Assembly: GCA_016938815.1 (NCBI GenBank)
Contig: JAFGTX010000137.1
Coordinates: 1 to 11,968 of the forward strand
Source of the DNA: Clostridia bacterium
GTDB taxonomy: Bacteria; Bacillota; Clostridia; Peptostreptococcales; Acidaminobacteraceae
Length of the DNA: 11,968 nt
Reading direction: 5' to 3'
The notes beneath the pieces are model-generated. The model saw only the letters and a list, made by a program, of their open reading frames with translations. It did not search any database and had not been told where the DNA came from. The position numbers and the translations under genes are program-made. Position 1 is the first letter of the stretch, and each line of letters begins with the position of its first letter. Shown in pieces: positions 260 to 11,915 of this stretch.

Positions 260-1096
260 CTACTTCTTATACCACGCATACATCATCGTACGCGTCAACG
301 ATTTTTCATAGGGATGAACCTCAGGCATTTCAGCACGGGTTAACCATGAGCCTTCTTTCAGTTCCGATGTATCTAGGGTGATGGTCTCATCACCATCCAG
401 TTCTGCAAAAAATCCAGTGAGCAAGCCACCGGTAATGCCCCACGGCTGACTGTCGTAGTAGCGAATGTTCTTCACTCTGATGCCCACTTCTTCAAAAACT
501 TCCCTACGCACAGCATCTTCAAGGGTTTCTCCAATTTCAACAAAACCGGCAATCAATGCATAGCGGTCGTAATTGCGGTCAGCATATTTCGTAAACAGCA
601 TTTTGTCGCCATTTTCTACCGCGACAATGACCACAGGACTGATTTGAGGATACTTCATCAAGCCACAGCTCGGGCAGGCCATCACCCGTTCATGATCTTT
701 CATGGCCATGGGTTGCCCACATTTGCCGCAGTACCGATTGCTTTGATACCAATCGTAAAGATGCCCCGCCGTATAGGCGATATGTCCGATGACATTATCC
801 GCCATATCAAAAAGTGTACGTCGATCCCTTCTGTCAAAGCCTTCTGTCAGCAAATGACTCTTTGTCCCTAAGTATAGATAATAAGGCGTTTCATCTATGG
901 CAAATAAGTACATAAACTCATCCGCATCACTTCCGATGATTGTCTCTACATCGGAAAGACTGGGATATAAGTCGTTTTCTTCATTTTCGTCAATCACAAA
1001 CTGCATGTCATCAACCACAATCACCTTGCTGTCTCGATCGATCGGGGACTTTCTATAGGTGATGTCCATCTGTTTTGGTGCTATATCTTGTATCAT
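260..1096 (-). CDS. nudC: NAD(+) diphosphatase NudC (Nudix hydrolase with C4 zinc ribbon)
   Basis: The ORF 260..1270 contains a Nudix box GFVEIGETLEDAVRREVFEEVGI (GX5EX7REUXEEXGU) and a CGKCG...CPSCG zinc-ribbon motif upstream of it, which is the NudC architecture. The start is placed at ATG 1096..1094 (MIQDIAPKQMDITYRK...) because it has a GGAG RBS 8 nt upstream. The longer ORF extension (1097..1270) would overlap the 3' end of the upstream yihY-like gene. Stop is TAG at 260..262. Confidence 0.85.
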   Translation of the reverse strand: MIQDIAPKQMDITYRKSPIDRDSKVIVVDDMQFVIDENEENDLYPSLSDVETIIGSDADEFMYLFAIDETPYYLYLGTKSHLLTEGFDRRDRRTLFDMADNVIGHIAYTAGHLYDWYQSNRYCGKCGQPMAMKDHERVMACPSCGLMKYPQISPVVIVAVENGDKMLFTKYADRNYDRYALIAGFVEIGETLEDAVRREVFEEVGIRVKNIRYYDSQPWGITGGLLTGFFAELDGDETITLDTSELKEGSWLTRAEMPEVHPYEKSLTRTMMYAWYKK

Positions 1097-1130
1097 TTTA
1101 TCATCTCCAATTGGTCTGCCATGACTGTAA

Positions 1131-2054
1131 TTATTTGCGCTTTTTATTGCTTCCCTTTTTATTATTACTACGTTTTTCCATACCACACAATACTTTCTTG
1201 ATAATATCACTGTCACGATGTTGACTTTGATGAACGAACCCATCCAACAAAATCGAATTAAGCTCTGCACCTATCATCAGTACGATACCAGTAAAATAAA
1301 GCCAAACCATTAAAATTACCACCGCCGCCAAGGAACCGTAGATAATGGAATATCGTCCAAAGTTGGAGACAAAATAAGAAAAGCCATAAGACATCAACAT
1401 CCAGAAGACGATGGCAAAGGTCGCTCCCTTCCATACATCTTTGAACCTTAGTTTCTTAGTAGGCAAGATCAAGTACATCAACAAAATATCCAGTACCATG
1501 ACGCCGACAATAAAGAACCACCGGACGTAGGAAAAGATGCTAATGAATTCCGCGGACATTGGAATAAAATAACTGACCAAGGACAAAAATTCCTTACCCA
1601 TAATGGATAGAATCGCCAAGACGACGGTCATCACCATGAAGGCAAAGGTATAGAGTATGCCAATCAGCTTCGCTTTAAAAAAACCACGGTAGCATTCCAC
1701 ACGATAAGCGACGTTCAGTGCACGTATCAGTGCTTCGACGCCTCTTGACGCCGTATACAGTGTCACAATCGCCGCCACAGGAATATAACCCGTCTCATCA
1801 AATAGAACGATATCCTTTATGTACTCCGAAATGACCACCGCTGAATCCAAGGGCAAAATACCATTGAGTACTTGAAGCACCATATCCGGGTCCAGAGAAA
1901 AACGTCCAAATATCGACAACAGGAAAATCAGAAAAGGAAAAAGTGACAACAACAAAAAAAATGCCAATTGAGCACTCAATGCCGTAATCTGATGTTCTCT
2001 GTATCTATAACGCAATTCCCAAAGTAAATTACTACAAAAGGATAAATTAAACAT
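1131..2054 (-). CDS. yihY: YihY/BrkB-family integral membrane protein (historically mis-called ribonuclease BN)
   Basis: 307-aa polytopic membrane protein with the family-typical N-terminal 'ITALSAQLAFFLLLSLFPFL' segment followed by multiple TM helices and a short basic C-terminal tail. ATG at 2054..2052 with GGGGGA 5 nt upstream. 34-nt gap to nudC suggests co-transcription. Confidence 0.85.
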   Translation of the reverse strand: MFNLSFCSNLLWELRYRYREHQITALSAQLAFFLLLSLFPFLIFLLSIFGRFSLDPDMVLQVLNGILPLDSAVVISEYIKDIVLFDETGYIPVAAIVTLYTASRGVEALIRALNVAYRVECYRGFFKAKLIGILYTFAFMVMTVVLAILSIMGKEFLSLVSYFIPMSAEFISIFSYVRWFFIVGVMVLDILLMYLILPTKKLRFKDVWKGATFAIVFWMLMSYGFSYFVSNFGRYSIIYGSLAAVVILMVWLYFTGIVLMIGAELNSILLDGFVHQSQHRDSDIIKKVLCGMEKRSNNKKGSNKKRK

Positions 2055-2159: not shown

Positions 2160-2196
2160 ATCAATATGAGCAACAATTATCTAAGGAGGAATGAAC

Positions 2197-3147
2197 ATGG
2201 CAGGAAAATTATCGAAATCCATGCTGCTGATTATTGTTCTTGCACTATTGGCGCTTGCCGGCATGAACAGTTTCTTTTTCCTCGAAAACTCTGAACAAGC
2301 GGTTATTCAGCGTTTTGGAGAAAAAGTCGCAGTCATTGACAAATCGGGTATGAATTTCAAACTACCATTTGTTGATAAAGTTTATATCATCAACACAAAG
2401 GAAATTCGAAGTGTACAATACGGCTACCGTCCGGACAATACACCGACACCAACTAGCGTACCAACTTATGTGGATTATCAAGATGAACAAATCGTATTAA
2501 CAAAAGGCTCTTACCTCGTGAACATCGGCGCAATCATTCAATACCGTATTACGGATGCTGCTGATTATATCTACAATGTTGACGATCAAAGTGGTACCCT
2601 ACGCCTTGCTTTTGAAAGTGTTCTAAGAAGAAACATGCAAAATAAGGATTTGGAAGATGCCTTGATCAACAAGGATTCCATTGCGGTTGAAATCCTACCT
2701 GAGTTAACTCAGAAGGTAAACAGCTATGGCCTCGGTATCACCATTGTAGAAGTTAAATTTACGGATGTATTGCTCCCTGAAAAAGTTCAATTTGCTTATG
2801 ACGACGTCAATATCGCAGAAAACGAGAAAGACGAATTTGTAAGTAAGGCAGCAAAATACACCAATGAAAAATTGCCAGCTGCAAGAGCGGAAGCTTACCA
2901 ACGCATCCAATCCGCAGAAGCTTATAAAGCGGAAAAAATCGCTCAGGCCCGTGGTGACGTAGAAAACTTCTTACAGGTTTACGAAAAGTATAAAGTATCA
3001 CAAGATGTTACAAAAACAAGATTGTATATTGAAACTATGGAACAAATTCTCCAAAATTCAACGCAAAAGTACATTCTTGATATGGATGGCAGCGGTACGG
3101 TTAAATACTTGCCTCTGAATCCAGAAGTCATGAAAGGGGGACAATAA
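2197..3147 (+). CDS. hflK: HflK-like SPFH/band-7 family membrane protein
   Basis: Single N-terminal TM helix (LLIIVLALLALAG), then an SPFH domain with HflK-type motifs (QAVIQRFGEK, IQYRITDAADYIYNV, FESVLRRNMQN, ITIVEVKFTDVLLPEKVQFAYDDVNIAE, AEAYKAEKIAQARGDVENFL, TKTRLYIETMEQIL, KYLPL). The start is placed at ATG 2197 (6 nt after AAGGAGG 2184-2190). The ORF-track start ATG 2191 abuts the RBS with no spacer. Confidence 0.85.
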   Translation: MAGKLSKSMLLIIVLALLALAGMNSFFFLENSEQAVIQRFGEKVAVIDKSGMNFKLPFVDKVYIINTKEIRSVQYGYRPDNTPTPTSVPTYVDYQDEQIVLTKGSYLVNIGAIIQYRITDAADYIYNVDDQSGTLRLAFESVLRRNMQNKDLEDALINKDSIAVEILPELTQKVNSYGLGITIVEVKFTDVLLPEKVQFAYDDVNIAENEKDEFVSKAAKYTNEKLPAARAEAYQRIQSAEAYKAEKIAQARGDVENFLQVYEKYKVSQDVTKTRLYIETMEQILQNSTQKYILDMDGSGTVKYLPLNPEVMKGGQ

Positions 3148-3148
3148 G

Positions 3149-4177
3149 ATGCAATTCAATAATCAAAACCCCAATGGTCAAAATTTCAACGATTTTCAAG
3201 AAAAGACAAGGCAACGTGCCGAAGACATTGCAAAAAACGCAAAAAAAGCCGCTAAACGTGGCATAGCCGCACTAATTATACTCTTTGTACTAATCGGTGC
3301 CAGCAGTTTCTTCTACATCGTTGCAGAAGACGAAGTCGCTACTGTCAAACAACTGGGCGAAACCAAAAAAGTCATCGTCGATGTGGACAATGACACAGCG
3401 GCTAGTCAAAGTCAACTTGATCCTAAATTCGCTAATATCGAAATCGTACGCGATAAGGGTCTCTTCTTCAAGATTCCTTTCATCACAACGGTTGAAAAAG
3501 ATACCAGCAAGTTGATTACCTATATCTCAAACTCTGCGCAAATCAATACAAAAGACAAGATCAAATACCAAATCTCGATGTTTGCACAATGGGAAATTTC
3601 TCATCCAGGTCTTTACAGATCATCACTTGGCAACGTTCAAAGAGCCAATGCCAATATCGATGAAGTAGCCTATGCCGTTGTTATCGAGAAAATCAATGGA
3701 TTGACAAGCAGAGAATTCTTAACAGACAAAGAAGCCCTTTATACAGCACTTGACGGCGCCCTTGTAGAGCTTAATGAAAAAATGGCCCCTAAAGGGATCG
3801 TCTTAAAGGACATCGAAGTTTACAGAACTATTTTACCAGATTCAAACATCGAATCGACTTATAAGAAAATGGTGGCAGAACGTGGTGCCATCGCTCAGAA
3901 AAAACGTTCTGAAGGTCAAGAGCTCTATCAAAATACGGTAGCTGACACTGACAGAAAAGTGGCTGAAACTATTGCTGAATCGATTGAGACTTCTGAAAAA
4001 ATCATCGGTGAAGCGGATGCATCTGCTCTTGAAATCTATGCAGAAGCCTTCAGTAAGGACCCTGAATTCTACGAATACTGGAGAACGCTCAAGTCTTATG
4101 AGAAGACCATCAATTCAGATACGGTCATCTACATGGATAAGAACAACGATTACTTGAAATATTTTAGAGGTAATTAG
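3149..4177 (+). CDS. hflC: HflC-like SPFH/band-7 family membrane protein
   Basis: ATG is 1 nt after the hflK-like TAA, with GGGGGA 7 nt upstream, indicating translational coupling. Features: TM helix IAALIILFVLIGASSFFYIV, an SPFH core, and a C-terminal HflC-type segment (AERGAIAQKKRSEGQELYQN...IIGEADASALEIYAEAFSKDPEFYEYWRTLKSYEKTI). It has an unusually Q/N-rich cytoplasmic N-terminus (MQFNNQNPNGQNFNDFQEK...). Confidence 0.8.
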   Translation: MQFNNQNPNGQNFNDFQEKTRQRAEDIAKNAKKAAKRGIAALIILFVLIGASSFFYIVAEDEVATVKQLGETKKVIVDVDNDTAASQSQLDPKFANIEIVRDKGLFFKIPFITTVEKDTSKLITYISNSAQINTKDKIKYQISMFAQWEISHPGLYRSSLGNVQRANANIDEVAYAVVIEKINGLTSREFLTDKEALYTALDGALVELNEKMAPKGIVLKDIEVYRTILPDSNIESTYKKMVAERGAIAQKKRSEGQELYQNTVADTDRKVAETIAESIETSEKIIGEADASALEIYAEAFSKDPEFYEYWRTLKSYEKTINSDTVIYMDKNNDYLKYFRGN

Positions 4178-4204
4178 TCCATCCAACTCATAATTTTGAT
4201 ATAG

Positions 4205-4238
4205 AAAATCCAACCGAATCATCCGGTTGGATTTTTTT
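4205..4238. terminator. Shared bidirectional rho-independent terminator between the convergent hflC-like gene and the giant ATPase gene
   Basis: Perfect 10-bp stem AATCCAACCG (4207-4216) / CGGTTGGATT (4224-4233) with a 7-nt loop. It is followed by T7 (4232-4238) on the plus strand and preceded by A4, so it gives a TTTTC run when read on the minus strand. It sits 28 nt after the hflC-like stop and 20 nt after the giant gene's stop. Confidence 0.8.
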
Positions 4239-4257: not shown

Positions 4258-7200
4258 TTAGTTATTTGCCTTTAAAGTTTCATATACATTCTTTATTTTT
4301 TCTATATGTGCTGTCAATTCTTGAAGGCTAAGGACTGCTTGTCCAACTTTGTCATCACCTTTCACCAGTTTGTTCTTATTAAAGAGTCCTTTAATTTCTT
4401 CATAACGCTGGTGCTCGTCTTCTGTTAGACAGTCATTGATTTCCTTCCACTTCAGCATATTGGATTCTGCACCGTTTGTAAGGGTTTGACAATCATTTTC
4501 ATAACTGCCCACCACTTGTTTGAAGAGTTCTTCCTCATTCATCACGGAAACGACACGCTCGGCAATTTTGTTCATATTACGGTAGGATCCCTGTAATTTA
4601 AATGCAGGTTCCATACGATACTCTTCAGCTTGTGCCGCTGAAGCAATATAAGCCATATTGACCTTTAAAACGATATCTCTAACCTTACTTAGTTTATGAA
4701 GAACCTCAATGTATTCGTTGAGTTCATCTGAACTATAGTTTCCTTCCAGCTCTACCGATTCGCGATCCGCACCGGATGCCATTGCCACTAAGCCATAGAT
4801 ATCAGAAGGATTTCGATTGGTCAATTTTGATAGCACCGGATTCGAAGTTAAGCAGTTTTCAATATAACTCAGCTTAAAAGCCTCTTCATTCTCCCGCAAC
4901 ATATCCCCTAGGTTATAAACGTCAGCACGGTTGGCCAACATATCCGGAATTTTAAATTTCTCACCACTCTCCGTATATGGATTCCCTGCCATAACGACTG
5001 CAATTTTCTTGCCGCGAAGGTCAAAGGTTTGTCCAACACCATCATAGACCCCTTCAATTTTACGCTGTCCATCACATAAGGAAATGAATTTCTGTAAAAA
5101 TTCAGGATGACAATGTTGAATATCATCGACATAGAGCATGATGTTATTGCCCATTTTAAGCGCTATGTTCAACTTTCGAAGCTCTTCTTTGGCACTGGAA
5201 TGACCTGCTTTTTCAGGATCCAGAGAGGTTATCTCATTGCCTAATGATGGACCGTTCACCTTTACCATAATAAAGCCCAGTCTATTGGCCACATACTCCA
5301 TTAAGGTTGTTTTACCATAGCCCGGCGGAGATACAAGGAGCAATAACCCCATAAGGTCTGTTCTCTTGTCATTTCCAACTACGCCCATTTGTTTGGCTAG
5401 GTTATCACCAATCAATGGCAGGTAGACTTTATCAATCAGCTTATTTCTTACAAAAGAAGTAAGGACGGTTGGTCTAAAGTCATCTAGGCGCAATGCCTCT
5501 TTGAAAGATTTAATGAGATCTGATTTAAGCGCCTGATAAGCCATATAGTCTGGTACAGTATTTTCAGTGAAGTGCTTCATCTTTTGCATGAATGCCGTAT
5601 AGTGAAGGGTATAATTCCCGTTATCCACTTGCCCATGGTTTCCAACAAGCCCCTCGATAGTGAGCTTGGTACCCGACTGGATGACGTTATCCAACTTGGC
5701 ATCTTTCTCGATTAACAAAACGATGACTTCATCCAAAACCCCGGCAATATCTGACGCCTCTAAAATGATTGGGCTATTTTCTTCTTGCTGTGCTTGCCAG
5801 TAGGCAAAAACCCATTCTTTCGCCAAGTAAAACTGACCTTCCAAATCCTTTTCACTCGCTTTCAATGAGTTTTCAAAGGTTTCCAGTGCTTTCACATCTC
5901 GAAGATAAGCCATAAAACCGTCATAGACTTGCTTGGCCAGCATGCTGATTACAAAAGTATCACCTGTCATCAACTCTTTACACAAATAGTCTGCAGCTTC
6001 AGGGATGCTGTCTGCCGAATAAAAAGGCAATTCATCATAGGCCGTTTCAAATTGCTCGATGATTAAAGGCAAATAGTTTTCGATGCGTGGTGGCGTCGCA
6101 AAAAAACCGCTGATTTTTGCCAACTCTGAGAGTCGGGCTGCCATTTGCTCTTTCGTCGTCTTATCCACTAAACGATTCCAAAACAGACGTGCCATAGCAC
6201 GTACTTCACTTCTATAAATCAGCAAATCGACTGTATGGAAGAGTTCTAGTAAGCCTCGCAAAATTTTTGAACCGTCTTCGTCGTGAACACCTTTGGTATA
6301 GCCCTCTTGGTAACGCTTTTCCATATAGGCTCTAACGGTTTCCTTAAGTTGACTTTCCGACATATCATAAAGGGCTCCTCGATCATAACCCTTCCCATCT
6401 GCCATCTCAAAAATAGAATAGGCCAGATATTCACCACGATAAACCTTACTATTTTCCGAAATGATGCTTTGATCAAATACATGACGATACTGCTCGATTT
6501 TAGGTTCCTGCACGCGATCCCAAAAATCCGTACCTGTTATGTGATAGTATAAGTGTTGATCCTTCTGAACAATGGACAAATCAATGGTCTTTCTATTCAC
6601 AGAGAAATGGTGTTGTCCGAATTTAATGACATCCTTACCCTGTAAATAGAGTTCCTGACGATCTTTCAACTGACGAATGGTATTCTCTTTTAAGGCTTTT
6701 AACTTTGAACTTAATTCATCGGCTTTGACCGTATCGCCCAAAGCCCGCAACTCCGAGGTAATATCACGCACTTTTTCTGCCATGATGTCGGTTGCCAGAT
6801 AGCCATTGATCTTTTCGACAGAATCAAATCCTGCCACGCGATTTTCAATACCGCTGATAATCCTTGTTGCAGAGTCAAACAATGTCACTAATTTCTTATT
6901 CAACTTATCCAAGAGAGTCTGTTTGCGTGTCTCAAAGGTACTGTAAATTTCCTCACGCTTTTCGCCTAGCTGCGTCAAGTACTCATCAAACTCAGAAAAT
7001 TTGCCCTCGAGCTCTTGAATCTGTACCATCACCTTATTTAGGTAGCTATCGCACTTTTCTTCGGTATCCGCAACTTCTAGATAATTTACAACCGCTTGTC
7101 CCAGTAGGCGCATTTGTGCACTAAACTGAATCGCCATCTCGCTTTTATTGAAGCTTTCAATTTTCGTTTTCAGCTTTGCCTTGGCATTGTTAATTTGAGA

Positions 7201-9138
7201 AAACAGTGCTGAAATCTTTTCGATGATTTCGGTCGAAACCGTTGGATCATCTATCTTAAAGTTGCTGACAATGTCCATCAAAAGCTCTAAATCCAATGAT
7301 GTCTTGTTCATTTTTTCTGCCAGTTCTTGACCTTCTTGGGATTTTGAAACGTCATCAATCCCCTCCTGTAAGGTCTCTACCGCTTCTTCATAGGGTTTTA
7401 AGCCATCAGGACCAATTAAAAACTGAATGCATTGATTTGAAAAGATATCATTTTGTTCTTTAACGCTTGTGTCAAGGGATTCAACCAGTTCTAAGTCCAC
7501 ATACATGAGGTCTCTTAAGGACGCTATTTTTCCACGCAGACTACGGATGTCGCCGAGCACCTCAACGTATTCATAAACATTCTCAAAGCTGCCATATGCC
7601 AGTTTCTTTAGCAGCACCTCTGTCTCTTCTTCTGTTTCAGTGACTTGCTTAATGGTCGCATTTTTTATTCTCGTCACCTTTTCGAATTCGCCAATGGCAA
7701 AAGTTGCCGTTTCTTTTACTTCTTTTAGCACATCCGATAGGCCAAATGCCTCCTCTTTACCAATCCAAAAGTAAGCATCCAATATACCTTGGGTCTCTTT
7801 TACGATATCCATGTAGACGCTGGCATAACTTTCACCCTTTTGAATCATCTTGCTTACACCACGACAAGCGGCAATACAAGTCACCACATCTTTGTTGCCG
7901 ATTTTATAAAGCGCGGAATCATTATTGCCCTCTAACTGATAGTCTTTGCCGACATAAGGCGTTTGCCAAACTTGCAGGGCGTGATTTTTCCGTGGTTCGT
8001 CTTCATGACGAAAAACAACCATTTCTCCATTATTGAAATGAGAATACCCGCTACATACAATAGGCGTATCAATGGTTTGTTCGATTACATTGTAAGAATA
8101 AATCAGGTAGGTACCGCTATCCATGTTATAGAAAATGTACTGATAATCTTCACCATTGGAAGATGCGATCAATTCATCGAATACCGGCTGTTCTACAGGC
8201 ACTTCGAAAATTTTATACTCGCCATTTTGAAGATAGTAGCCTTGAGGGAAAATCAATCCGTGTCCACCTGGCAGCAACTTGCAAGTATGGGCTATAGAAT
8301 CAATCCTTAAAACGTTTTTCAGTTTATTGTTGAAGACAAAGTAACGGTAGTCCTTTTCCTTGTAAGGCAATATTTTAAGAATGATTAACTGACCTAAATC
8401 CACATATGAAATTTCGGCATCATCCAAGTTTTGATCAGGGTCTTCAACGTCCTCTGAATAAATTCCTTTGCCTGTTTCCGTATTGTCTTCCACCTTAATA
8501 GTCAGGTCCCCGCCAATTGTTTCAACAAAAACCTTATCCAAAATGGAGACATGAGGGTGAAGTCCCGTCCGCTGGTTATCGCGGGTCGCTTTGACAAAAT
8601 CAAGTTCATTGCCTAGATTAAACTTCACTTCATGGTCACTTCTATTGTCGACGTATTTTAGATGATTTTCTTCAATCTGCCATTTGAAGACTTTGATGTC
8701 CATGACATTGTCACTGGTTTGAAAAATCATATAGAAATACGGCCCTAAGATGCTAAATTTTGCAAAGAAGGTGTTTTTGTAGTATCGGTATAGATCATCA
8801 AAGTCTTTTAGGAATTGTTGATCCTCGATAAATCCTAAAGATTCTTCTGTAAAACTACCTTCTACATAACGGTATACCGCAAAAACATCTTTCAAGGCCA
8901 CTTTTTGTTTCAAACCTATATGAACGTTGTATCCAAATAGGAAAAAGTCCCCTACCGGTGCCATATCTCGTGGAATACAATTGTTCTCCGTCAGAATCCG
9001 TTCACTGGATAGAAGTTTGCTTTCTATGGCGCCGAAAACTTCTTTTCTAACCGCATTCAGTTGTTCCGCTCTGGCAATCAAGTCGTCTCCCTGCTTTTGA
9101 AGACGACTTTTTATTACTTCATAGGTTCCATTATTCAT
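4258..9138 (-). CDS. Giant (1626 aa) uncharacterized multidomain protein with a MoxR/AAA_5-type AAA+ ATPase module near the C-terminus; third gene of the NfeD-flotillin operon
   Basis: Uninterrupted 4.9-kb ORF. ATG at 9138..9136 has a GGAG RBS 6 nt upstream, and this RBS lies inside the last flotillin codons (flotillin stop TAA at 9140-9142, i.e. a 1-nt gap). The ORF track started it at an in-frame TTG at 9150. P-loop LLLVSPPGYGKTTL at aa ~1272-1285 (nt ~5320). Walker B IMLYVDDIQH. Then ...KIAVVMAGNPYTESGEKFKIPDMLANRADVY, which matches the MoxR/AAA_5 '...vlATqNP.E..G...LP.AlLDRF' pattern. The ~1240 aa before the ATPase are a beta-rich, Y/N/G-rich N-terminal region (aa ~150-450) and a long helical/coiled-coil middle; no family is recognisable by eye. 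Confidence 0.85.
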   Translation of the reverse strand: MNNGTYEVIKSRLQKQGDDLIARAEQLNAVRKEVFGAIESKLLSSERILTENNCIPRDMAPVGDFFLFGYNVHIGLKQKVALKDVFAVYRYVEGSFTEESLGFIEDQQFLKDFDDLYRYYKNTFFAKFSILGPYFYMIFQTSDNVMDIKVFKWQIEENHLKYVDNRSDHEVKFNLGNELDFVKATRDNQRTGLHPHVSILDKVFVETIGGDLTIKVEDNTETGKGIYSEDVEDPDQNLDDAEISYVDLGQLIILKILPYKEKDYRYFVFNNKLKNVLRIDSIAHTCKLLPGGHGLIFPQGYYLQNGEYKIFEVPVEQPVFDELIASSNGEDYQYIFYNMDSGTYLIYSYNVIEQTIDTPIVCSGYSHFNNGEMVVFRHEDEPRKNHALQVWQTPYVGKDYQLEGNNDSALYKIGNKDVVTCIAACRGVSKMIQKGESYASVYMDIVKETQGILDAYFWIGKEEAFGLSDVLKEVKETATFAIGEFEKVTRIKNATIKQVTETEEETEVLLKKLAYGSFENVYEYVEVLGDIRSLRGKIASLRDLMYVDLELVESLDTSVKEQNDIFSNQCIQFLIGPDGLKPYEEAVETLQEGIDDVSKSQEGQELAEKMNKTSLDLELLMDIVSNFKIDDPTVSTEIIEKISALFSQINNAKAKLKTKIESFNKSEMAIQFSAQMRLLGQAVVNYLEVADTEEKCDSYLNKVMVQIQELEGKFSEFDEYLTQLGEKREEIYSTFETRKQTLLDKLNKKLVTLFDSATRIISGIENRVAGFDSVEKINGYLATDIMAEKVRDITSELRALGDTVKADELSSKLKALKENTIRQLKDRQELYLQGKDVIKFGQHHFSVNRKTIDLSIVQKDQHLYYHITGTDFWDRVQEPKIEQYRHVFDQSIISENSKVYRGEYLAYSIFEMADGKGYDRGALYDMSESQLKETVRAYMEKRYQEGYTKGVHDEDGSKILRGLLELFHTVDLLIYRSEVRAMARLFWNRLVDKTTKEQMAARLSELAKISGFFATPPRIENYLPLIIEQFETAYDELPFYSADSIPEAADYLCKELMTGDTFVISMLAKQVYDGFMAYLRDVKALETFENSLKASEKDLEGQFYLAKEWVFAYWQAQQEENSPIILEASDIAGVLDEVIVLLIEKDAKLDNVIQSGTKLTIEGLVGNHGQVDNGNYTLHYTAFMQKMKHFTENTVPDYMAYQALKSDLIKSFKEALRLDDFRPTVLTSFVRNKLIDKVYLPLIGDNLAKQMGVVGNDKRTDLMGLLLLVSPPGYGKTTLMEYVANRLGFIMVKVNGPSLGNEITSLDPEKAGHSSAKEELRKLNIALKMGNNIMLYVDDIQHCHPEFLQKFISLCDGQRKIEGVYDGVGQTFDLRGKKIAVVMAGNPYTESGEKFKIPDMLANRADVYNLGDMLRENEEAFKLSYIENCLTSNPVLSKLTNRNPSDIYGLVAMASGADRESVELEGNYSSDELNEYIEVLHKLSKVRDIVLKVNMAYIASAAQAEEYRMEPAFKLQGSYRNMNKIAERVVSVMNEEELFKQVVGSYENDCQTLTNGAESNMLKWKEINDCLTEDEHQRYEEIKGLFNKNKLVKGDDKVGQAVLSLQELTAHIEKIKNVYETLKANN
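4891..5403 (-). other. AAA+ (MoxR/AAA_5-like) ATPase domain within the giant protein, approximately aa 1250-1420
   Basis: Walker A SPPGYGKTT (Lys codon within 5302-5322). Walker B YVDDIQ at 5116-5133 (an Asp-Asp variant of the usual Asp-Glu). NP...G and NRADVY motifs downstream. Domain boundaries are approximate. Confidence 0.6.
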
Positions 9139-9139
9139 G

Positions 9140-11164
9140 TTATTCTCCAAACGTTGAACCCACTAATTTTGCTGGTAAATCCGCCACGCCTGCTTTATTC
9201 ACTGTATCTAATAATTTCCCTAACATGGTACGGTCACCGCCACTTGCAGAGGACATCATCTTCGTAATGGCGCCTGAAATCGTTAAGTGCATTAGGTCTT
9301 CTGACGATAAGTTGAATCTACCTACTAGTGTTTGCAATTGCTTTTGGAAATAGTCCGCATCACCTGTAATCAACGTTTCCTTAATATCCGTCATGACATC
9401 ACTGTTGCCGACAAATCTATCCACTGCCTTACCTTGCGTGATCGAACCAATGATCTTATCAAAGAACATCGTCTCACCACCGACGATATCAATTTTTGCT
9501 GTTTTAAGCGCTTCTTGGATAACAGCGGCTTGAGCGTCTGCAATATCTTTTTGAATGGCAATTTTAGCAAGTTCAATATCTTTTTCTTTTGCCAATTCCA
9601 ACTTGAACTCTTCATGGTCTCTGCCCACTTCGTCCAGTAACTTCATGCTATTCGCCTTTTCTTTGATACCTTCTGCTTCTGAAAGATACTTACGTTTAAG
9701 GATATCCGCTTCAACGATACCATCTTTTTCTTTTACTTCTACCTTCGCTGTTTGTCCTTTTGCTTCTGCCATTGCTTTTGATTCGATAACCTTTGCGTCG
9801 GCAATACCTTCAGCAGAACGATCAATTACTTTAGCATCTGCCAGTACCTTAATGGCTTCCGCCTCTTTTTGAGAAGCTTTAAGTTTTGCATCCGCGTCAA
9901 TGATTGTTTTTTCAGCTTCTTTTTCGGCCGCTAATTTTGCCGCCTCAGCCGCTTTTACTTCTCTTACTTTTCTTGTTTCCGCATCTTCTTCCGCTTTCTT
10001 AATCGCTACGTTTTTCACACGATCCGCTTCAGCAAATGCACGGGTATCTTTGATTTTTTCTTCTTCTGCTACTGTATCTTTTTCAACAGCGACTCTTTCG
10101 CGAATCACCACTTGGACATTTTTCTTTTCAACTTCAACTTGCTTTTCTTTATCGATGGTTGCTAAATCGACCAACTTGTCTTTTTCTGTTCTCTCTAACA
10201 AACGTTTACGTTCAACACGTTCTATCTCAACCGCTTCCGTACTTTCTTTTGATTTGGCTGCAATGATGATTTGACGTTGCTTGTTTTCTTCTGCTACGCC
10301 AATTTCCTCTTCTGTTTTTACACGAGCGATTTCTGCTTTATAGCGCTCTTCTTGAGCAACTTTTTCGGCTTCTGCATTTTCTCTGGAGTTGATTACTGAA
10401 ATTTCACGTCGTTGCTTGGCCTCTGCTTCTGCCTGTTGCTTTTCAAGTTCTAAAATCGCCTCTTTGGCAGCAACGTCCTGATTCTTGATTGTCTTTTCCT
10501 TTTCACGCTGAATTTCATTGGCTAAAATCATTTGCTTGGCGGTCAATTCAGTGATCTTCTTAATACCTTCCGCATCCAAGATATTGTCCGCATTCAACAC
10601 ATTAATATCTGTTTGTTCCAAATAATCGATTGCCGCATCGTCAAGAACATAACCGTTCAGGTCGGTTCCGATAATCTGAAGAATTTCGTGTTTAAAACTT
10701 TCTCTGTCTGTGTAAAGTTCCACAAAATCAAATTTTTTACCTACTGTTTTTAAGGCTTCCGAGAACTTCGCATCGAAAAATGCCATCAGCGTTTCTGGAT
10801 CAGAAGCTTTTTGACAACCTAAGGATTGAGCTACCTTTAGAACATCTTCTTGGGTTTGATTAACACGTACAAAGAAGGCAACACGTATGTCAGCCCTTAA
10901 ATTATCCTGACAAATCAGACCATCCTTGCCCTCTCTAGCAATTTCAACCCTCTTTACCGAAATATCCATGATTTCAAAACGGTGTAAAATCGGTATAACG
11001 AACATGCCACCAAAACTTACAATTTGTCCACCAACCCCATTACGGATGATAACTTTTGATTGCTCAACTTTTTTATAGAATCTCGCGAATAGAGCTAACG
11101 CCCCCATAATTGTAATTAAAACTACGCCTATTGTTACCAGTGTCATTTGTGATATAAATCCCAT
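9140..11164 (-). CDS. Flotillin-family SPFH protein (FloT/YqiK-like), 674 aa with an extended E/A/K-rich coiled coil
   Basis: ATG 11164..11162 with GGAGG 9 nt upstream. N-terminal TM (LVTIGVVLITIMGALALFA), then an SPFH domain (VIIRNGVGGQIVSFGGMFVIPILHRFEIMDISVKRVEI...). Then ~250 aa of EA-rich heptad-like low-complexity sequence (EAEAKQRRE..., AEEDAETRKVREVKAAEAAKLAAEKEAEK, ADAKVI repeats), followed by a C-terminal flotillin tail. This is the classic flotillin architecture. Confidence 0.9.
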   Translation of the reverse strand: MGFISQMTLVTIGVVLITIMGALALFARFYKKVEQSKVIIRNGVGGQIVSFGGMFVIPILHRFEIMDISVKRVEIAREGKDGLICQDNLRADIRVAFFVRVNQTQEDVLKVAQSLGCQKASDPETLMAFFDAKFSEALKTVGKKFDFVELYTDRESFKHEILQIIGTDLNGYVLDDAAIDYLEQTDINVLNADNILDAEGIKKITELTAKQMILANEIQREKEKTIKNQDVAAKEAILELEKQQAEAEAKQRREISVINSRENAEAEKVAQEERYKAEIARVKTEEEIGVAEENKQRQIIIAAKSKESTEAVEIERVERKRLLERTEKDKLVDLATIDKEKQVEVEKKNVQVVIRERVAVEKDTVAEEEKIKDTRAFAEADRVKNVAIKKAEEDAETRKVREVKAAEAAKLAAEKEAEKTIIDADAKLKASQKEAEAIKVLADAKVIDRSAEGIADAKVIESKAMAEAKGQTAKVEVKEKDGIVEADILKRKYLSEAEGIKEKANSMKLLDEVGRDHEEFKLELAKEKDIELAKIAIQKDIADAQAAVIQEALKTAKIDIVGGETMFFDKIIGSITQGKAVDRFVGNSDVMTDIKETLITGDADYFQKQLQTLVGRFNLSSEDLMHLTISGAITKMMSSASGGDRTMLGKLLDTVNKAGVADLPAKLVGSTFGE

Positions 11165-11191: not shown

Positions 11192-11818
11192 TTATAATTT
11201 TCTTATGTAATACACTTCTTTTTCTTGATCTTTTTCCAAAACGAATGCCACTTCATTTTTCTCAAAAGAATCGTCTTCACATTTTGTTTTTACATTGATT
11301 ACGATTGACGTATCACCCGCTTCAATAATGGCTTGACCGATTTGGTCTCCTTCCAAATTACTTTTCAAGGTGCAGGTTTTGTTCAGCACCCTACACGCCA
11401 CATTATTTTTTGATTTCTGTTCAAAGACATGTGTTCTCAAGAATTTGATTTGGCCCTTTGCAGTTAGAAGACTCAGCGCAAATGCCGGTATAAGCAAAAC
11501 ACCTGCCATTTTTCCACCTGCTGCAATCGGCAAAAAATACATAAGCATCGTCAGTAGCCAAAAGGTCAAAGCCAACATGCTGAGCACCAAGGTCATCGGC
11601 ACTTGTCCAATGTTCATAAATACTGCCAGTGCATTCAGCAATCCACTGCTTTCAAGGCCCTCTGTTTCAACCTCAATATCTAAGTCAAAAAAGTCAAAGT
11701 CAAATAAGCCTAAACTTGCAAGCACCCAATAGCCTTGTGTCAAAATCAATAAACTTGTTGGAATAATATTTACGCCTTGAAATGCAAATTTTATGAGTTC
11801 CGTTTTGTTCCCCCCCAT
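11192..11818 (-). CDS. NfeD-like / YqiJ-like (DUF1449-type) membrane protein with C-terminal OB-fold; canonical flotillin partner
   Basis: 208 aa. A DFDFFDLDIEVE acidic segment is followed by a hydrophobic hairpin (ALAVFMNIGQVPMTLVLSMLALTFWLLTMLMYFLPIAA...LLIPAFALSLL) and a beta-strand-rich C-terminus (ACRVLNKTCTLKS...GDTSIVINVKTKCEDDSFEKNEVAFVLEKDQEKEVYYI), consistent with an NfeD short-form OB domain. It is immediately upstream of flotillin (27-nt gap), as in yqiJ-yqiK and yuaF-floT. The ATG is embedded in a G7 run and has an in-frame TGA directly upstream. Confidence 0.75.
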   Translation of the reverse strand: MGGNKTELIKFAFQGVNIIPTSLLILTQGYWVLASLGLFDFDFFDLDIEVETEGLESSGLLNALAVFMNIGQVPMTLVLSMLALTFWLLTMLMYFLPIAAGGKMAGVLLIPAFALSLLTAKGQIKFLRTHVFEQKSKNNVACRVLNKTCTLKSNLEGDQIGQAIIEAGDTSIVINVKTKCEDDSFEKNEVAFVLEKDQEKEVYYIRKL

Positions 11819-11869: not shown

Positions 11870-11915
11870 ATTATAAAAAAATGTTGTTTTATCAGACAAT
11901 TACTATTATAACAAA
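11870..11915 (-). promoter_or_regulatory. Putative tandem promoters for the NfeD-flotillin-giant ATPase operon
   Basis: Read on the minus strand there are two candidate promoters. First: an extended -10 TGTTATAAT (plus 11905-11913) with a poor -35. Second, 30 nt further downstream: TTGTCT (plus 11894-11899), 18-nt spacer, TATAAT (plus 11870-11875). Both lie within the 150-nt AT-rich region upstream of the NfeD-like start and give a 5' leader of ~45-85 nt. Confidence 0.4.

Follow-up and report, generated by a model that had tools for sequence, protein, structure and literature searches.

The window analysed here, a stretch of 11,968 nucleotides from a Clostridia bacterium contig (JAFGTX010000137.1), carries on its minus strand an operon of three genes encoding a YqiJ-like membrane protein, a flotillin-like protein and, as the final cistron, a giant ATPase. 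The operon and its flanking signals comprise the following features:

11870..11899, minus strand: promoter-like TTGTCT-18-TATAAT, about 50 nt 5′ of the yqiJ-like start (consensus scan, 10/12 matches)
11192..11818, minus strand: YqiJ/YuaF-like (NfeD2-type) membrane protein, 208 aa, first gene of the operon (weak YqiJ_N match, E 0.045)
9140..11164, minus strand: flotillin-like SPFH protein, 674 aa, upstream operon partner of the giant gene (Pfam Band_7, hydropathy)
9145..9148, minus strand: ribosome-binding site GGAG, 6 nt 5′ of the giant-gene ATG (sequence reading)
4258..9138, minus strand: complete coding sequence of the giant ATPase, 1626 aa plus stop (ORF list and translation)
4203..4238, minus strand: hairpin CCAACCG-7 nt-CGGTTGG, flanked by an A-tract and, on the opposite side, by a T-tract (sequence reading)

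The giant gene runs from an ATG at 9138-9136 to a stop codon at 4260-4258. Its GGAG box sits within the final codons of the flotillin gene, whose own stop codon (9142-9140) leaves a gap of a single nucleotide before the ATG. Both the gap and the position of the ribosome-binding site suggest that the giant ATPase is translationally coupled to flotillin. A TTG at 9150 was considered as an alternative start but is unlikely, since the spacing of the ribosome-binding site and an NCBI protein that is 100% identical and has the same start ('MAG: DNA repair ATPase [Clostridia bacterium]') both favor the ATG at 9138. The hairpin, which was absent from the pattern-scanner output, separates the giant gene from hflC, which converges on it, and it is likely to be a bidirectional terminator and to mark the end of the operon. 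At the other end, evidence for the promoter-like site is weak, because such sites are no more numerous in the region than in shuffled sequence. The YqiJ-like protein has multiple hydrophobic segments, and its homolog in locus L012 matches YqiJ_N above the cut-off (3.5e-8). In the flotillin-like protein, one N-terminal transmembrane segment is followed by a basic cluster (RFYKK), and the SPFH body is therefore predicted to face the cytoplasm.

The giant protein has more than 4000 collinear full-length homologs. A search of representatives gave 508 at E <= 1e-30, and at least 587 species genomes have a relative. Coverage is 99-100% at 58-100% identity and remains so at 41-50% identity. Because full-length homologs span nearly the entire frame, the ORF is, on homology grounds, real and not a chance frame. 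Clostridium, Vallitalea, Flavobacterium, Hymenobacter, Maribacter and Gimesia are among the culturable genera that carry the family, and no relative was found in viral contigs. A sequence-only reading of this DNA had treated most of the protein as unassignable, and this view did not hold: by sequence the protein is a member of the DUF3686/DUF7902 family of giant AAA+ proteins, which is known and uncharacterized, it has an identical NCBI entry, and its operon has been described. The family signatures SPPGYGKT and DDIQH are both present and are invariant in the alignment. Popp et al. (2024) already reported the operon with a 'novel AAA+ ATPase' described as 'Betapropeller+Coiled-coil+AAA-ATPase', and they also mention an 'abbreviated' three-gene form (PMC11237479). 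A full-text literature search with DUF3686, PF12458, DUF7902, and 'ATPase involved in DNA' combined with flotillin returned no paper, and no experimental work on any family member was found in the literature.

We derived the architecture of the giant protein from two AlphaFold2 models (mean pLDDT 87.7 and 83.3), with secondary structure assigned by DSSP. Upstream of the ATPase, it comprises:

9034..9132, minus strand: N-terminal helix, aa 3-35 (AlphaFold2 model, DSSP)
7768..9084, minus strand: Pfam DUF3686 (PF12458), aa 19-457, holding a beta-rich, propeller-like domain
6649..7914, minus strand: predicted helical rod, aa 409-830, about 10 long helices (the longest 49-58 aa) in spectrin-repeat-like bundles
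7156..7404, minus strand: Pfam DUF7902 (PF25472), aa 579-661, within the rod (E 1.7e-24, 86 bits against a cut-off of 26)
6514..6630, minus strand: small conserved beta domain, aa 837-875 (models and alignment invariants)
5704..6504, minus strand: helical domain, aa 879-1145 (model)
6271..6306, minus strand: conserved motif EGYTKGVHDEDG, aa 945-956, in the helical domain (alignment)

The models support the general layout proposed earlier, namely a beta-rich N-terminus, a long helical region and a C-terminal AAA+ module, and all sequence strings quoted for it occur in the translation (GHGLIFPQGYYLQNGEYKIFEVP at aa 292, WQTPYVGKDYQ at aa 391, the P-loop at aa 1270 and YVDDIQ at aa 1336). The claim that the region preceding the ATPase lacks an assignable motif stands only in part: two Pfam families match, both of no established function. 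The PF12458 match covers all 448 profile positions (1-448) with E 6.1e-177 and 589 bits against a cut-off of 25. Within it, about 27 beta strands (aa 41-392) are modeled as a domain that appears propeller-like, though divergent. The proposed long coiled coil, on the other hand, gives way in the models to antiparallel three-helix bundles resembling spectrin repeats. Next to the rod, the small beta domain has the invariant residues G841, F845, H866, G869 and T870, and no Pfam match. In the helical domain, Y947, G950, H952, D953 and D955 form a YxxGxHDxD motif that is invariant or nearly so. This motif could mark an unrecognized enzymatic domain, which would alter the best explanation of the protein. 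An HD phosphohydrolase domain, considered in view of conserved H...HD...D-like residues, was checked and found no support. When aa 831-1240, the rod and the C-terminal tail were scanned against Pfam at relaxed settings, DUF7902 was the only credible match.

As the earlier reading had also held, Pfam, NCBIfam, PADLOC and motif searches detected no protease, nuclease or GTPase domain in the giant protein, and HExxH, NKxD, HKD and DEAD motifs were absent from it in the motif search. Hydropathy analysis revealed no credible transmembrane segment either; the best 19-residue window (Kyte–Doolittle 1.8) contains five acidic residues. The giant ATPase is thus predicted to be soluble and cytoplasmic.

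The single P-loop of the protein belongs to its C-terminal AAA+ module:

4879..5373, minus strand: AAA+ alpha/beta subdomain, aa 1256-1420, nearest to the MoxR / AAA_5 group
5305..5331, minus strand: Walker A SPPGYGKTT, aa 1270-1278, with Ser instead of Gly as the first residue (alignment)
5113..5142, minus strand: Walker B strand and motif IMLYVDDIQH, aa 1333-1342, DD replacing DE (alignment)
5020..5061, minus strand: predicted pre-sensor-1 beta hairpin, aa 1360-1373, a pair of strands that follows helix alpha3 and precedes strand beta4 (model)
4927..4986, minus strand: GNPYTESGEKFKIPDMLANR, aa 1385-1404, with putative sensor 1 N1386 and candidate arginine finger R1404 (alignment, model position)
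4261..4878, minus strand: helical lid and C-terminal helices, aa 1421-1626 (model)

Within the protein, conservation is by far the highest in the ATPase block. Walker A was found in 120/120 close homologs and in 124 of the 129 representatives having the region, with S1270 to T1277 invariant. The unusual Walker B is equally persistent. D1338, D1339, Q1341 and H1342 do not vary across 43 full-length homologs (31-48% identity), DD is present in 120/120 close homologs, and the sole exception among 150 representatives, P0214, has 'NG'. None of the orthologs has DE, so that DD is a genuine, family-wide feature and not a strain-specific substitution or a sequencing error. The GNPYTESGEKFKIPDMLANR block ranks second in conservation within the protein; N1386, P1387 and R1404 are invariant, and their position in the model points to roles of sensor 1 for N1386 and arginine finger for R1404. 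Within LQGSYRNM (aa 1515-1522), L1515 to R1520 are invariant and R1520 is a candidate sensor 2. The stretch NGPxLGxxxTSLDP shows no conserved aromatic pore loop. At the place of the helix-2 insert of MoxR proteins, strand beta2 and helix alpha2 are joined in the model by an 18-residue loop (aa 1296-1313), where no hairpin is predicted.

Where does this module belong among AAA+ proteins? Structure comparison of the model identified CbbQ and NorQ as the nearest solved folds. The AAA_5 profile scored below its gathering threshold in the giant protein itself (18.4 bits against 22), and many homologs have a precomputed match to PF07728. PDB sequence searches, with either the single sequence or a 43-member profile, produced only P-loop-level matches (E >= 6.5e-4 and 7.7e-4, respectively) and no solved relative. 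Classical-clade AAA proteins have no pre-sensor-1 insert; the giant ATPase is predicted to have one, and it does not show the combination that marks this clade, which also comprises a full-length PF00004 match and the second region of homology. The earlier label 'MoxR-like' is apt for the fold, which is nearest to MoxR members, but not for two things common to characterized MoxR ATPases: the catalytic Glu is absent, and the recurrent neighbors include no VWA partner, although one may be encoded elsewhere.

We then examined gene order in 61 informative loci from Bacillota, Planctomycetota, Bacteroidota, Verrucomicrobiota, Desulfobacterota and Chitinispirillaceae. In 58 of them, the gene immediately upstream, on the same strand, is flotillin-like, and a YqiJ-like gene precedes flotillin in 53; the three loci with no flotillin gene nearby are L024, L030 and L052. 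Downstream of the giant ATPase there are no conserved genes across the loci. The operon is longer in 17-19 Bacteroidota loci, with added CesT_Tir_1 (5e-56) and PspA_IM30 (9e-41) genes and, alongside them, a divergent HTH regulator; this arrangement is exactly the operon of Popp et al. (PMC11237479). Recurrent neighbors are limited to flotillin, YqiJ, PspA, CesT and the HTH regulator; in the source lineage, neither a PspA nor a CesT gene occurs within 8-10 kb. The nearby hflK/hflC genes were rejected as a functional link, being convergent and recurring only in L014, about 5.6 kb downstream. The other loci do not conserve the genes for a DUF4280 protein and a STAND-like protein that lie upstream in the source contig, and these genes were likewise set aside as members of the system. 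Synteny of this extent shows, as far as gene order can, a functional link, and not physical contact or its direction. The flotillin connection suggested earlier is thereby upheld, while recruitment of the ATPase by flotillin is an interpretation.

What could such a protein do? The reading that we propose, and to which we give an even chance, is that the soluble giant ATPase is a slow, switch-like enzyme that remodels or scaffolds a cytoplasmic assembly of flotillin and YqiJ (and PspA). It would combine a propeller-like beta domain, a spectrin-repeat-like rod, two conserved unassigned domains and an AAA+ module of the MoxR clade. The AAA+ modules may form a ring, as in MoxR-type ATPases, from which the rods would point the beta domains outward. 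These could dock on the cytoplasmic flotillin/YqiJ cage and, in lineages with pspA in the operon, also on PspA polymers. ATP binding and slow hydrolysis might then drive assembly, remodeling or disassembly of the scaffold, or of clients held there. An Asp can support hydrolysis in some P-loop NTPases, so that hydrolysis by the giant ATPase need not be slow. For comparison, the E109Q substitution of the Walker B Glu in NorQ leaves about 2% of ATPase activity (PMC9976466). Because an invariant Asp replaces the catalytic Glu and a conserved aromatic pore loop is lacking, we favor a slow, partner-gated switch or remodeler over a processive unfoldase, and we infer, as did the sequence-only reading, a switch or scaffold role rather than that of a motor. 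An ATP-dependent partner for flotillin is plausible, since SPFH proteins cooperate with PspA (e.g. B. subtilis YdjI) and with AAA+ machines (e.g. HflK/C-FtsH), and S. aureus FloA-NfeD is an ATP-independent holdase. A bolder version of this idea, which we consider rather unlikely, makes the family the missing counterpart, in bacteria, of Vps4 or of uncoating ATPases. In it, a MoxR-derived ring with spectrin-like arms would grip flotillin cages and PspA (ESCRT-III) polymers by its propeller tips and, gated by ATP, would assemble, reshape or dismantle them. The DD Walker B would idle the ATPase until the scaffold engages, and the YxxGxHDxD domain could add catalysis.

The main competitor is a largely structural role, in which propeller and helical rod would build a spectrin-like or coat-like membrane skeleton that orders flotillin microdomains, and a degenerate ATPase would serve only as a nucleotide-dependent oligomerization hub. 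We regard this as doubtful. The ATPase is the most conserved part of the protein, and the invariance of Walker A, sensor 1, the candidate arginine finger and the candidate sensor 2 argues for a working catalytic cycle; moreover, given low Foldseek TM-scores (0.06-0.15), the resemblance to coats holds only at the level of domain types. A conflict role is less probable still: a sensor NTPase with a propeller as its sensor and a DD Walker B could act through flotillin or PspA to set off abortive infection at the membrane. DD in Walker B is typical of STAND switches, which the giant ATPase resembles in this respect, and a DUF4280 protein and a STAND-like NTPase are encoded just upstream in the source contig. 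MoxR-type ATPases and propeller-bearing NTPases are also recurrent in conflict systems, as Kaur et al. 2020 reportedly describe. However, those upstream genes are not conserved elsewhere, relatives are absent from viral contigs, and the protein has no toxic effector domain. PADLOC gave only insignificant P-loop matches to the giant protein (E 0.0055 and 0.015) and none to flotillin or the YqiJ-like protein, and the core of three genes keeps its order in six phyla, without variable, island-like gene content.

A classical MoxR-type maturation chaperone, inserting metal cofactors or activating enzymes like NorQ/NorD, CbbQ/CbbO and CoxD, would agree with CbbQ and NorQ as the nearest solved folds and with the label 'MoxR-like ATPase' that homologs sometimes have. 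We nonetheless judge it very unlikely: the conserved neighbors include neither a VWA/MIDAS partner nor a metalloenzyme, the catalytic Glu is missing, and nothing in the NorQ, CbbQ and CoxD systems corresponds to the 1250-aa N-terminal extension. Hardly credible, finally, is the DNA repair ATPase of the databases, in which the long helical region would work as in SMC, Rad50 or SbcC. That region does exist, the name is carried by the Pfam PF12458, NCBI and UniRef entries, and Popp et al. annotated the divergent HTH regulator of Bacteroidota as cHTH+protease, i.e. LexA/CI-like (PMC11237479). Our scan of the regulator gave HTH_3 only, however, and the literature search turned up no paper behind the name. 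Pfam, NCBIfam and PDB sequence searches found no ABC-type head, nuclease or DNA-binding domain; NCBIfam RuvB matches are sub-threshold and confined to about 45 residues around the P-loop (18-20 bits against cut-offs near 280-300). Furthermore, the ATPase is of MoxR type and not SMC-like, and the conserved neighbors are all membrane or membrane-stress proteins. The label 'DNA repair ATPase' is probably wrong for the giant protein, and correcting it matters because it spreads through thousands of genome annotations.

The preferred reading, a slow switch or remodeler of a flotillin scaffold, bears on how bacteria turn over their large flotillin cages and PspA polymers, and on whether an ATP-driven machine does so. 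According to a 2025 review, a Vps4-like ATPase is apparently absent in bacteria (PMC7619361). As the only ATPase consistently encoded with the flotillin/YqiJ pair across many phyla, the giant ATPase family is the obvious candidate to test. In addition, an invariant Asp-for-Glu exchange in Walker B of an otherwise intact AAA+ site makes the family a useful system in which to ask how an AAA+ protein becomes a switch.

Compared with known systems, the giant protein belongs to the same family as that of Popp et al. (2024). The gene order YqiJ, flotillin, ATPase is shared, the window holds the 'abbreviated' three-gene form, and there is no difference at the family level (PMC11237479). What is added here is the invariant DDxQH, the Ser-initial Walker A, the MoxR-type fold affinity, the spectrin-like rod and the two conserved unassigned domains. 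MoxR proteins (CbbQ, NorQ, RavA; AAA_5) and the modules of midasin and dynein have a related AAA+ fold, including the pre-sensor-1 beta hairpin that the model predicts for the giant ATPase. In contrast, MoxR proteins have DE in Walker B and a VWA/MIDAS partner, usually from an adjacent gene, whereas the giant ATPase has DD, no such neighbor, a 1250-aa N-terminal extension and a long helical tail, and its operon partners are membrane scaffolds instead of metalloenzymes. SMC, Rad50 and SbcC have an ABC-type head split by a coiled coil and a signature motif, neither of which the giant ATPase shows. The pairing of an SPFH protein with an NfeD-type partner is known from QmcA-YbbJ and FloA-NfeD, and HflK/C-FtsH provides a precedent for an SPFH scaffold coupled genetically and functionally to an AAA+ protein. 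FtsH, however, is a membrane-anchored classical-clade AAA protease within a periplasmic cage, while the giant ATPase, predicted to be soluble, has no protease domain, belongs to another AAA+ clade and, as far as the genes indicate, would meet a flotillin that faces the cytoplasm. For bacterial PspA, an ATPase devoted to disassembly is considered to be missing (PMC7619361). Like Vps4 with ESCRT-III (and PspF with PspA), the giant ATPase is linked in Bacteroidota, by its genes, to PspA, a polymer of the ESCRT-III superfamily.

The longest ORF of the window runs on the minus strand, spanning 4258–9150 if read from a TTG or 4258–9138 if read from the first ATG (ORF list and translation). The ATG at 9138 is the likely start codon, since GGAG lies 6 nt 5′ of it, only 1 nt separates it from the stop codon ending the upstream gene, and the identical 1626-aa protein deposited at NCBI for a Clostridia MAG begins there. 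Moreover, alignments with more than 4000 database proteins span 99–100% of the product, and thus the giant ORF is a real gene.

Features surrounding the giant gene
260–1270, minus strand: NUDIX hydrolase with an NADH-pyrophosphatase-type zinc ribbon
1131–2054, minus strand: BrkB/YihY-family membrane protein
2191–3147 and 3149–4177, plus strand: HflK/HflC pair, convergent to the giant gene (TIGR01933, 1e-63; TIGR01932, 4e-41)
4203–4238, between the giant gene and convergent hflC: GC-rich 7-bp hairpin, an A-tract on one flank and a T-tract on the other (sequence reading)
9140–11164, minus strand, directly upstream of the giant gene: SPFH/flotillin-like protein, 674 aa, with a single TM segment at the N-terminus and a basic cluster after it (Pfam, hydropathy)
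11192–11818, minus strand, upstream of the flotillin-like gene: polytopic protein, 208 aa, weakly similar to YqiJ_N (Pfam, hydropathy)

The hairpin, missed by a pattern scanner, is probably a bidirectional terminator. The NUDIX and BrkB/YihY ORFs as listed overlap by 140 nt because the former was read from a GTG further upstream; the gene as called on the source contig encodes 278 aa. Two different SPFH systems, HflK/HflC and the flotillin operon, adjoin in the window. HflK/HflC was ruled out as a conserved neighbor, as L014 alone among the other loci carries HflK/C, some 5.6 kb downstream.

Relatives of the giant protein were detected in at least 587 genomes when species representatives were scanned, the best 80 loci belonging to Clostridia, Planctomycetota, Bacteroidota, Verrucomicrobiota, Desulfobacterota and Chitinispirillaceae. 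Synteny was counted in the 61 loci with sufficient upstream sequence: 58 have a same-strand flotillin homolog as the immediate upstream neighbor, preceded by a YqiJ-like gene in 53. Three loci (L024, L030 and L052) have no nearby flotillin gene. No conserved downstream neighbor was found across the loci compared. In 17–19 loci from Bacteroidota, CesT_Tir_1 and PspA_IM30 genes (domains confirmed) and a divergent HTH regulator stand ahead of the operon; no PspA gene was found near the Clostridia loci, source contig included. In some Bacteroidota loci, extra genes separate the flotillin and ATPase genes; in L069 (5835–7735) they encode a 226-aa coiled-coil protein, which by eye starts like a signal peptide and has a hydrophobic stretch resembling a TM segment, along with a pair of paralogous membrane proteins, each about 180–190 aa long. 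Directly upstream of the yqiJ-like gene on the source contig (L001, 1–7135), the same strand encodes a DUF4280 protein, a 700-aa WHD/STAND-like/AAA NTPase, two small ORFs and a 1032-aa protein without a Pfam match, an arrangement absent from the other loci.

We modeled the giant protein with AlphaFold2 in two parts, using alignments of 93 sequences (residues 1–980: pLDDT 83.3, pTM 0.55; residues 831–1626: pLDDT 87.7, pTM 0.76).

Segments of the giant protein (AlphaFold2, except Walker A)
3–35: N-terminal helix
41–392: about 27 beta strands
409–830: about ten long helices
837–875: small beta domain
879 to about 1145: helical domain, then a long connecting helix
about 1256–1420: AAA+ alpha/beta subdomain with a two-stranded insert ahead of sensor 1
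1270–1278 (5305–5331, minus strand): Walker A SPPGYGKTT, starting with Ser where GPPGxGKT normally has Gly (alignment)
C-terminal: helical lid and tail

A sequence-only reading had described this protein accurately, and all the strings it quoted are in place. Its view that the N-terminal 1240 or so residues are unassignable holds for residues 831–1240, which match no family even at relaxed Pfam thresholds, but not for DUF3686 (PF12458; residues 19–457, E 6e-177) or DUF7902 (579–661, E 2e-24); being DUFs, these assign no established function. The P-loop region matches AAA (PF00004, 32.8 bits), while AAA_5 scores 18.4 bits, below cut-off. As that reading proposed, protease, GTPase and nuclease motifs are missing (HExxH, NKxD, HKD and DEAD all absent in a motif scan), and hydropathy gives no credible membrane segment. 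The helical domain at 879–1145, without a Pfam match, contains a strongly conserved motif, EGYTKGVHDEDG (residues 945–956; 6271–6306, minus strand), in which Y947, G950, H952, D953 and D955 vary little or not at all between phyla; it could be an unrecognised metal-binding or catalytic site. Homologs from Planctomycetota, Verrucomicrobiota and Desulfobacterota (1750–2036 aa) are 150–400 aa longer at the C-terminus, and the extension in L024 (7887–13484) looks TPR-like by eye.

The DD Walker B, whose conservation the same reading had left to ortholog alignment, proved a family trait. SPPGYGKTT and h-h-h-Y-h-DDI occur in 120/120 closest homologs. The Walker B region is present in 128 of 150 proteins representing 50%-identity clusters, and all but one of the 128 have DD, then I or V, then Q/E-H; the exception, P0214 (1312 aa), has NG (LLYLNGIEH) and may be an inactivated paralog. 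Across 43 aligned full-length members, 31–48% identical to the giant protein, every Walker A residue (the unusual Ser among them) is invariant, as are D1338, D1339, Q1341, H1342 and the residues at the sensor 1 (N1386), arginine-finger (R1404) and sensor 2 (R1520) positions, and canonical DE was not found. Judged by this near-universal conservation, which rules out a sequencing error, DD is an ancient character within an otherwise intact active site. The hhhhDD pattern also occurs in DnaA and STAND NTPases, both nucleotide switches. NorQ, a MoxR protein, retains about 2% of its ATPase activity when Gln replaces the equivalent Glu (PMC9976466). A slow or partner-gated ATPase cycle is a reasonable inference. 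Judging from sequence, no aromatic residue is conserved at the pore-loop position (NGPxLGxxxTSLDP), a feature that speaks against a threading unfoldase.

We put at about even chances that the giant protein remodels or scaffolds the flotillin/YqiJ assembly in an ATP-gated manner, and does the same for PspA in lineages with a linked pspA. This reading draws on a soluble protein, apparently coupled in translation to a flotillin with a predicted cytoplasmic body and syntenic with it across phyla, with an AAA+ site conserved apart from the Glu-to-Asp change. MoxR-type rings would form a hub, with the predicted rods and propeller-like domains as binding arms toward the scaffold; the protein would contact flotillin/YqiJ directly, and a putatively slow ATPase might gate scaffold remodelling.

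A mainly structural, spectrin-like or coat-like element is possible but unlikely, given that conservation within the protein peaks at the ATPase site. An anti-phage or conflict system is harder still to accept, as PADLOC gave no match, no effector was found and the loci lack island-like variability. With neither a VWA partner nor a client enzyme among the conserved neighbors, and with the catalytic Glu missing, a classical MoxR maturation chaperone is very doubtful. Least credible is a DNA-repair ATPase: the database name is its sole support, whereas no head, nuclease or DNA-binding domain was found and the conserved neighbors are all membrane proteins.

The protein belongs to a catalogued family (Pfam DUFs, DUF3686 being described as 'ATPase involved in DNA repair'; NCBI 'DNA repair ATPase', a name we flag as probably wrong) already noted by comparative genomics. 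Popp et al. (2024; PMC11237479) list 'Betapropeller+Coiled-coil+AAA-ATPase' in Dokdonia in a supplementary table and report a wide occurrence of abbreviated operons that lack PspA. Gene order in the Bacteroidota loci that we retrieved with the giant protein is that of their operon, and thus the two ATPases are one family. Our literature search found no experimental study of it, and the DUF3686/DUF7902 accessions and names do not occur in searchable papers. New here are the DDxQH motif and the Walker A beginning with Ser, both family-wide, along with the placement of the fold as MoxR-type, the spectrin-like character of the rod, a pair of conserved domains without family assignment and the quantified synteny.

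Among known systems, SPFH proteins recruit PspA (YdjI), cage the AAA+ protease FtsH and, with NfeD, act as ATP-independent holdases; a Vps4-like ATPase for PspA appears absent in bacteria, according to a 2025 review (PMC7619361). As a concrete and testable candidate, the family may provide ATP-driven control of flotillin and PspA scaffolds in bacteria. Its module is MoxR-like in fold, as the sequence-only reading proposed, and departs from the MoxR family proper in lacking the catalytic Glu and any VWA partner among the conserved neighbors.
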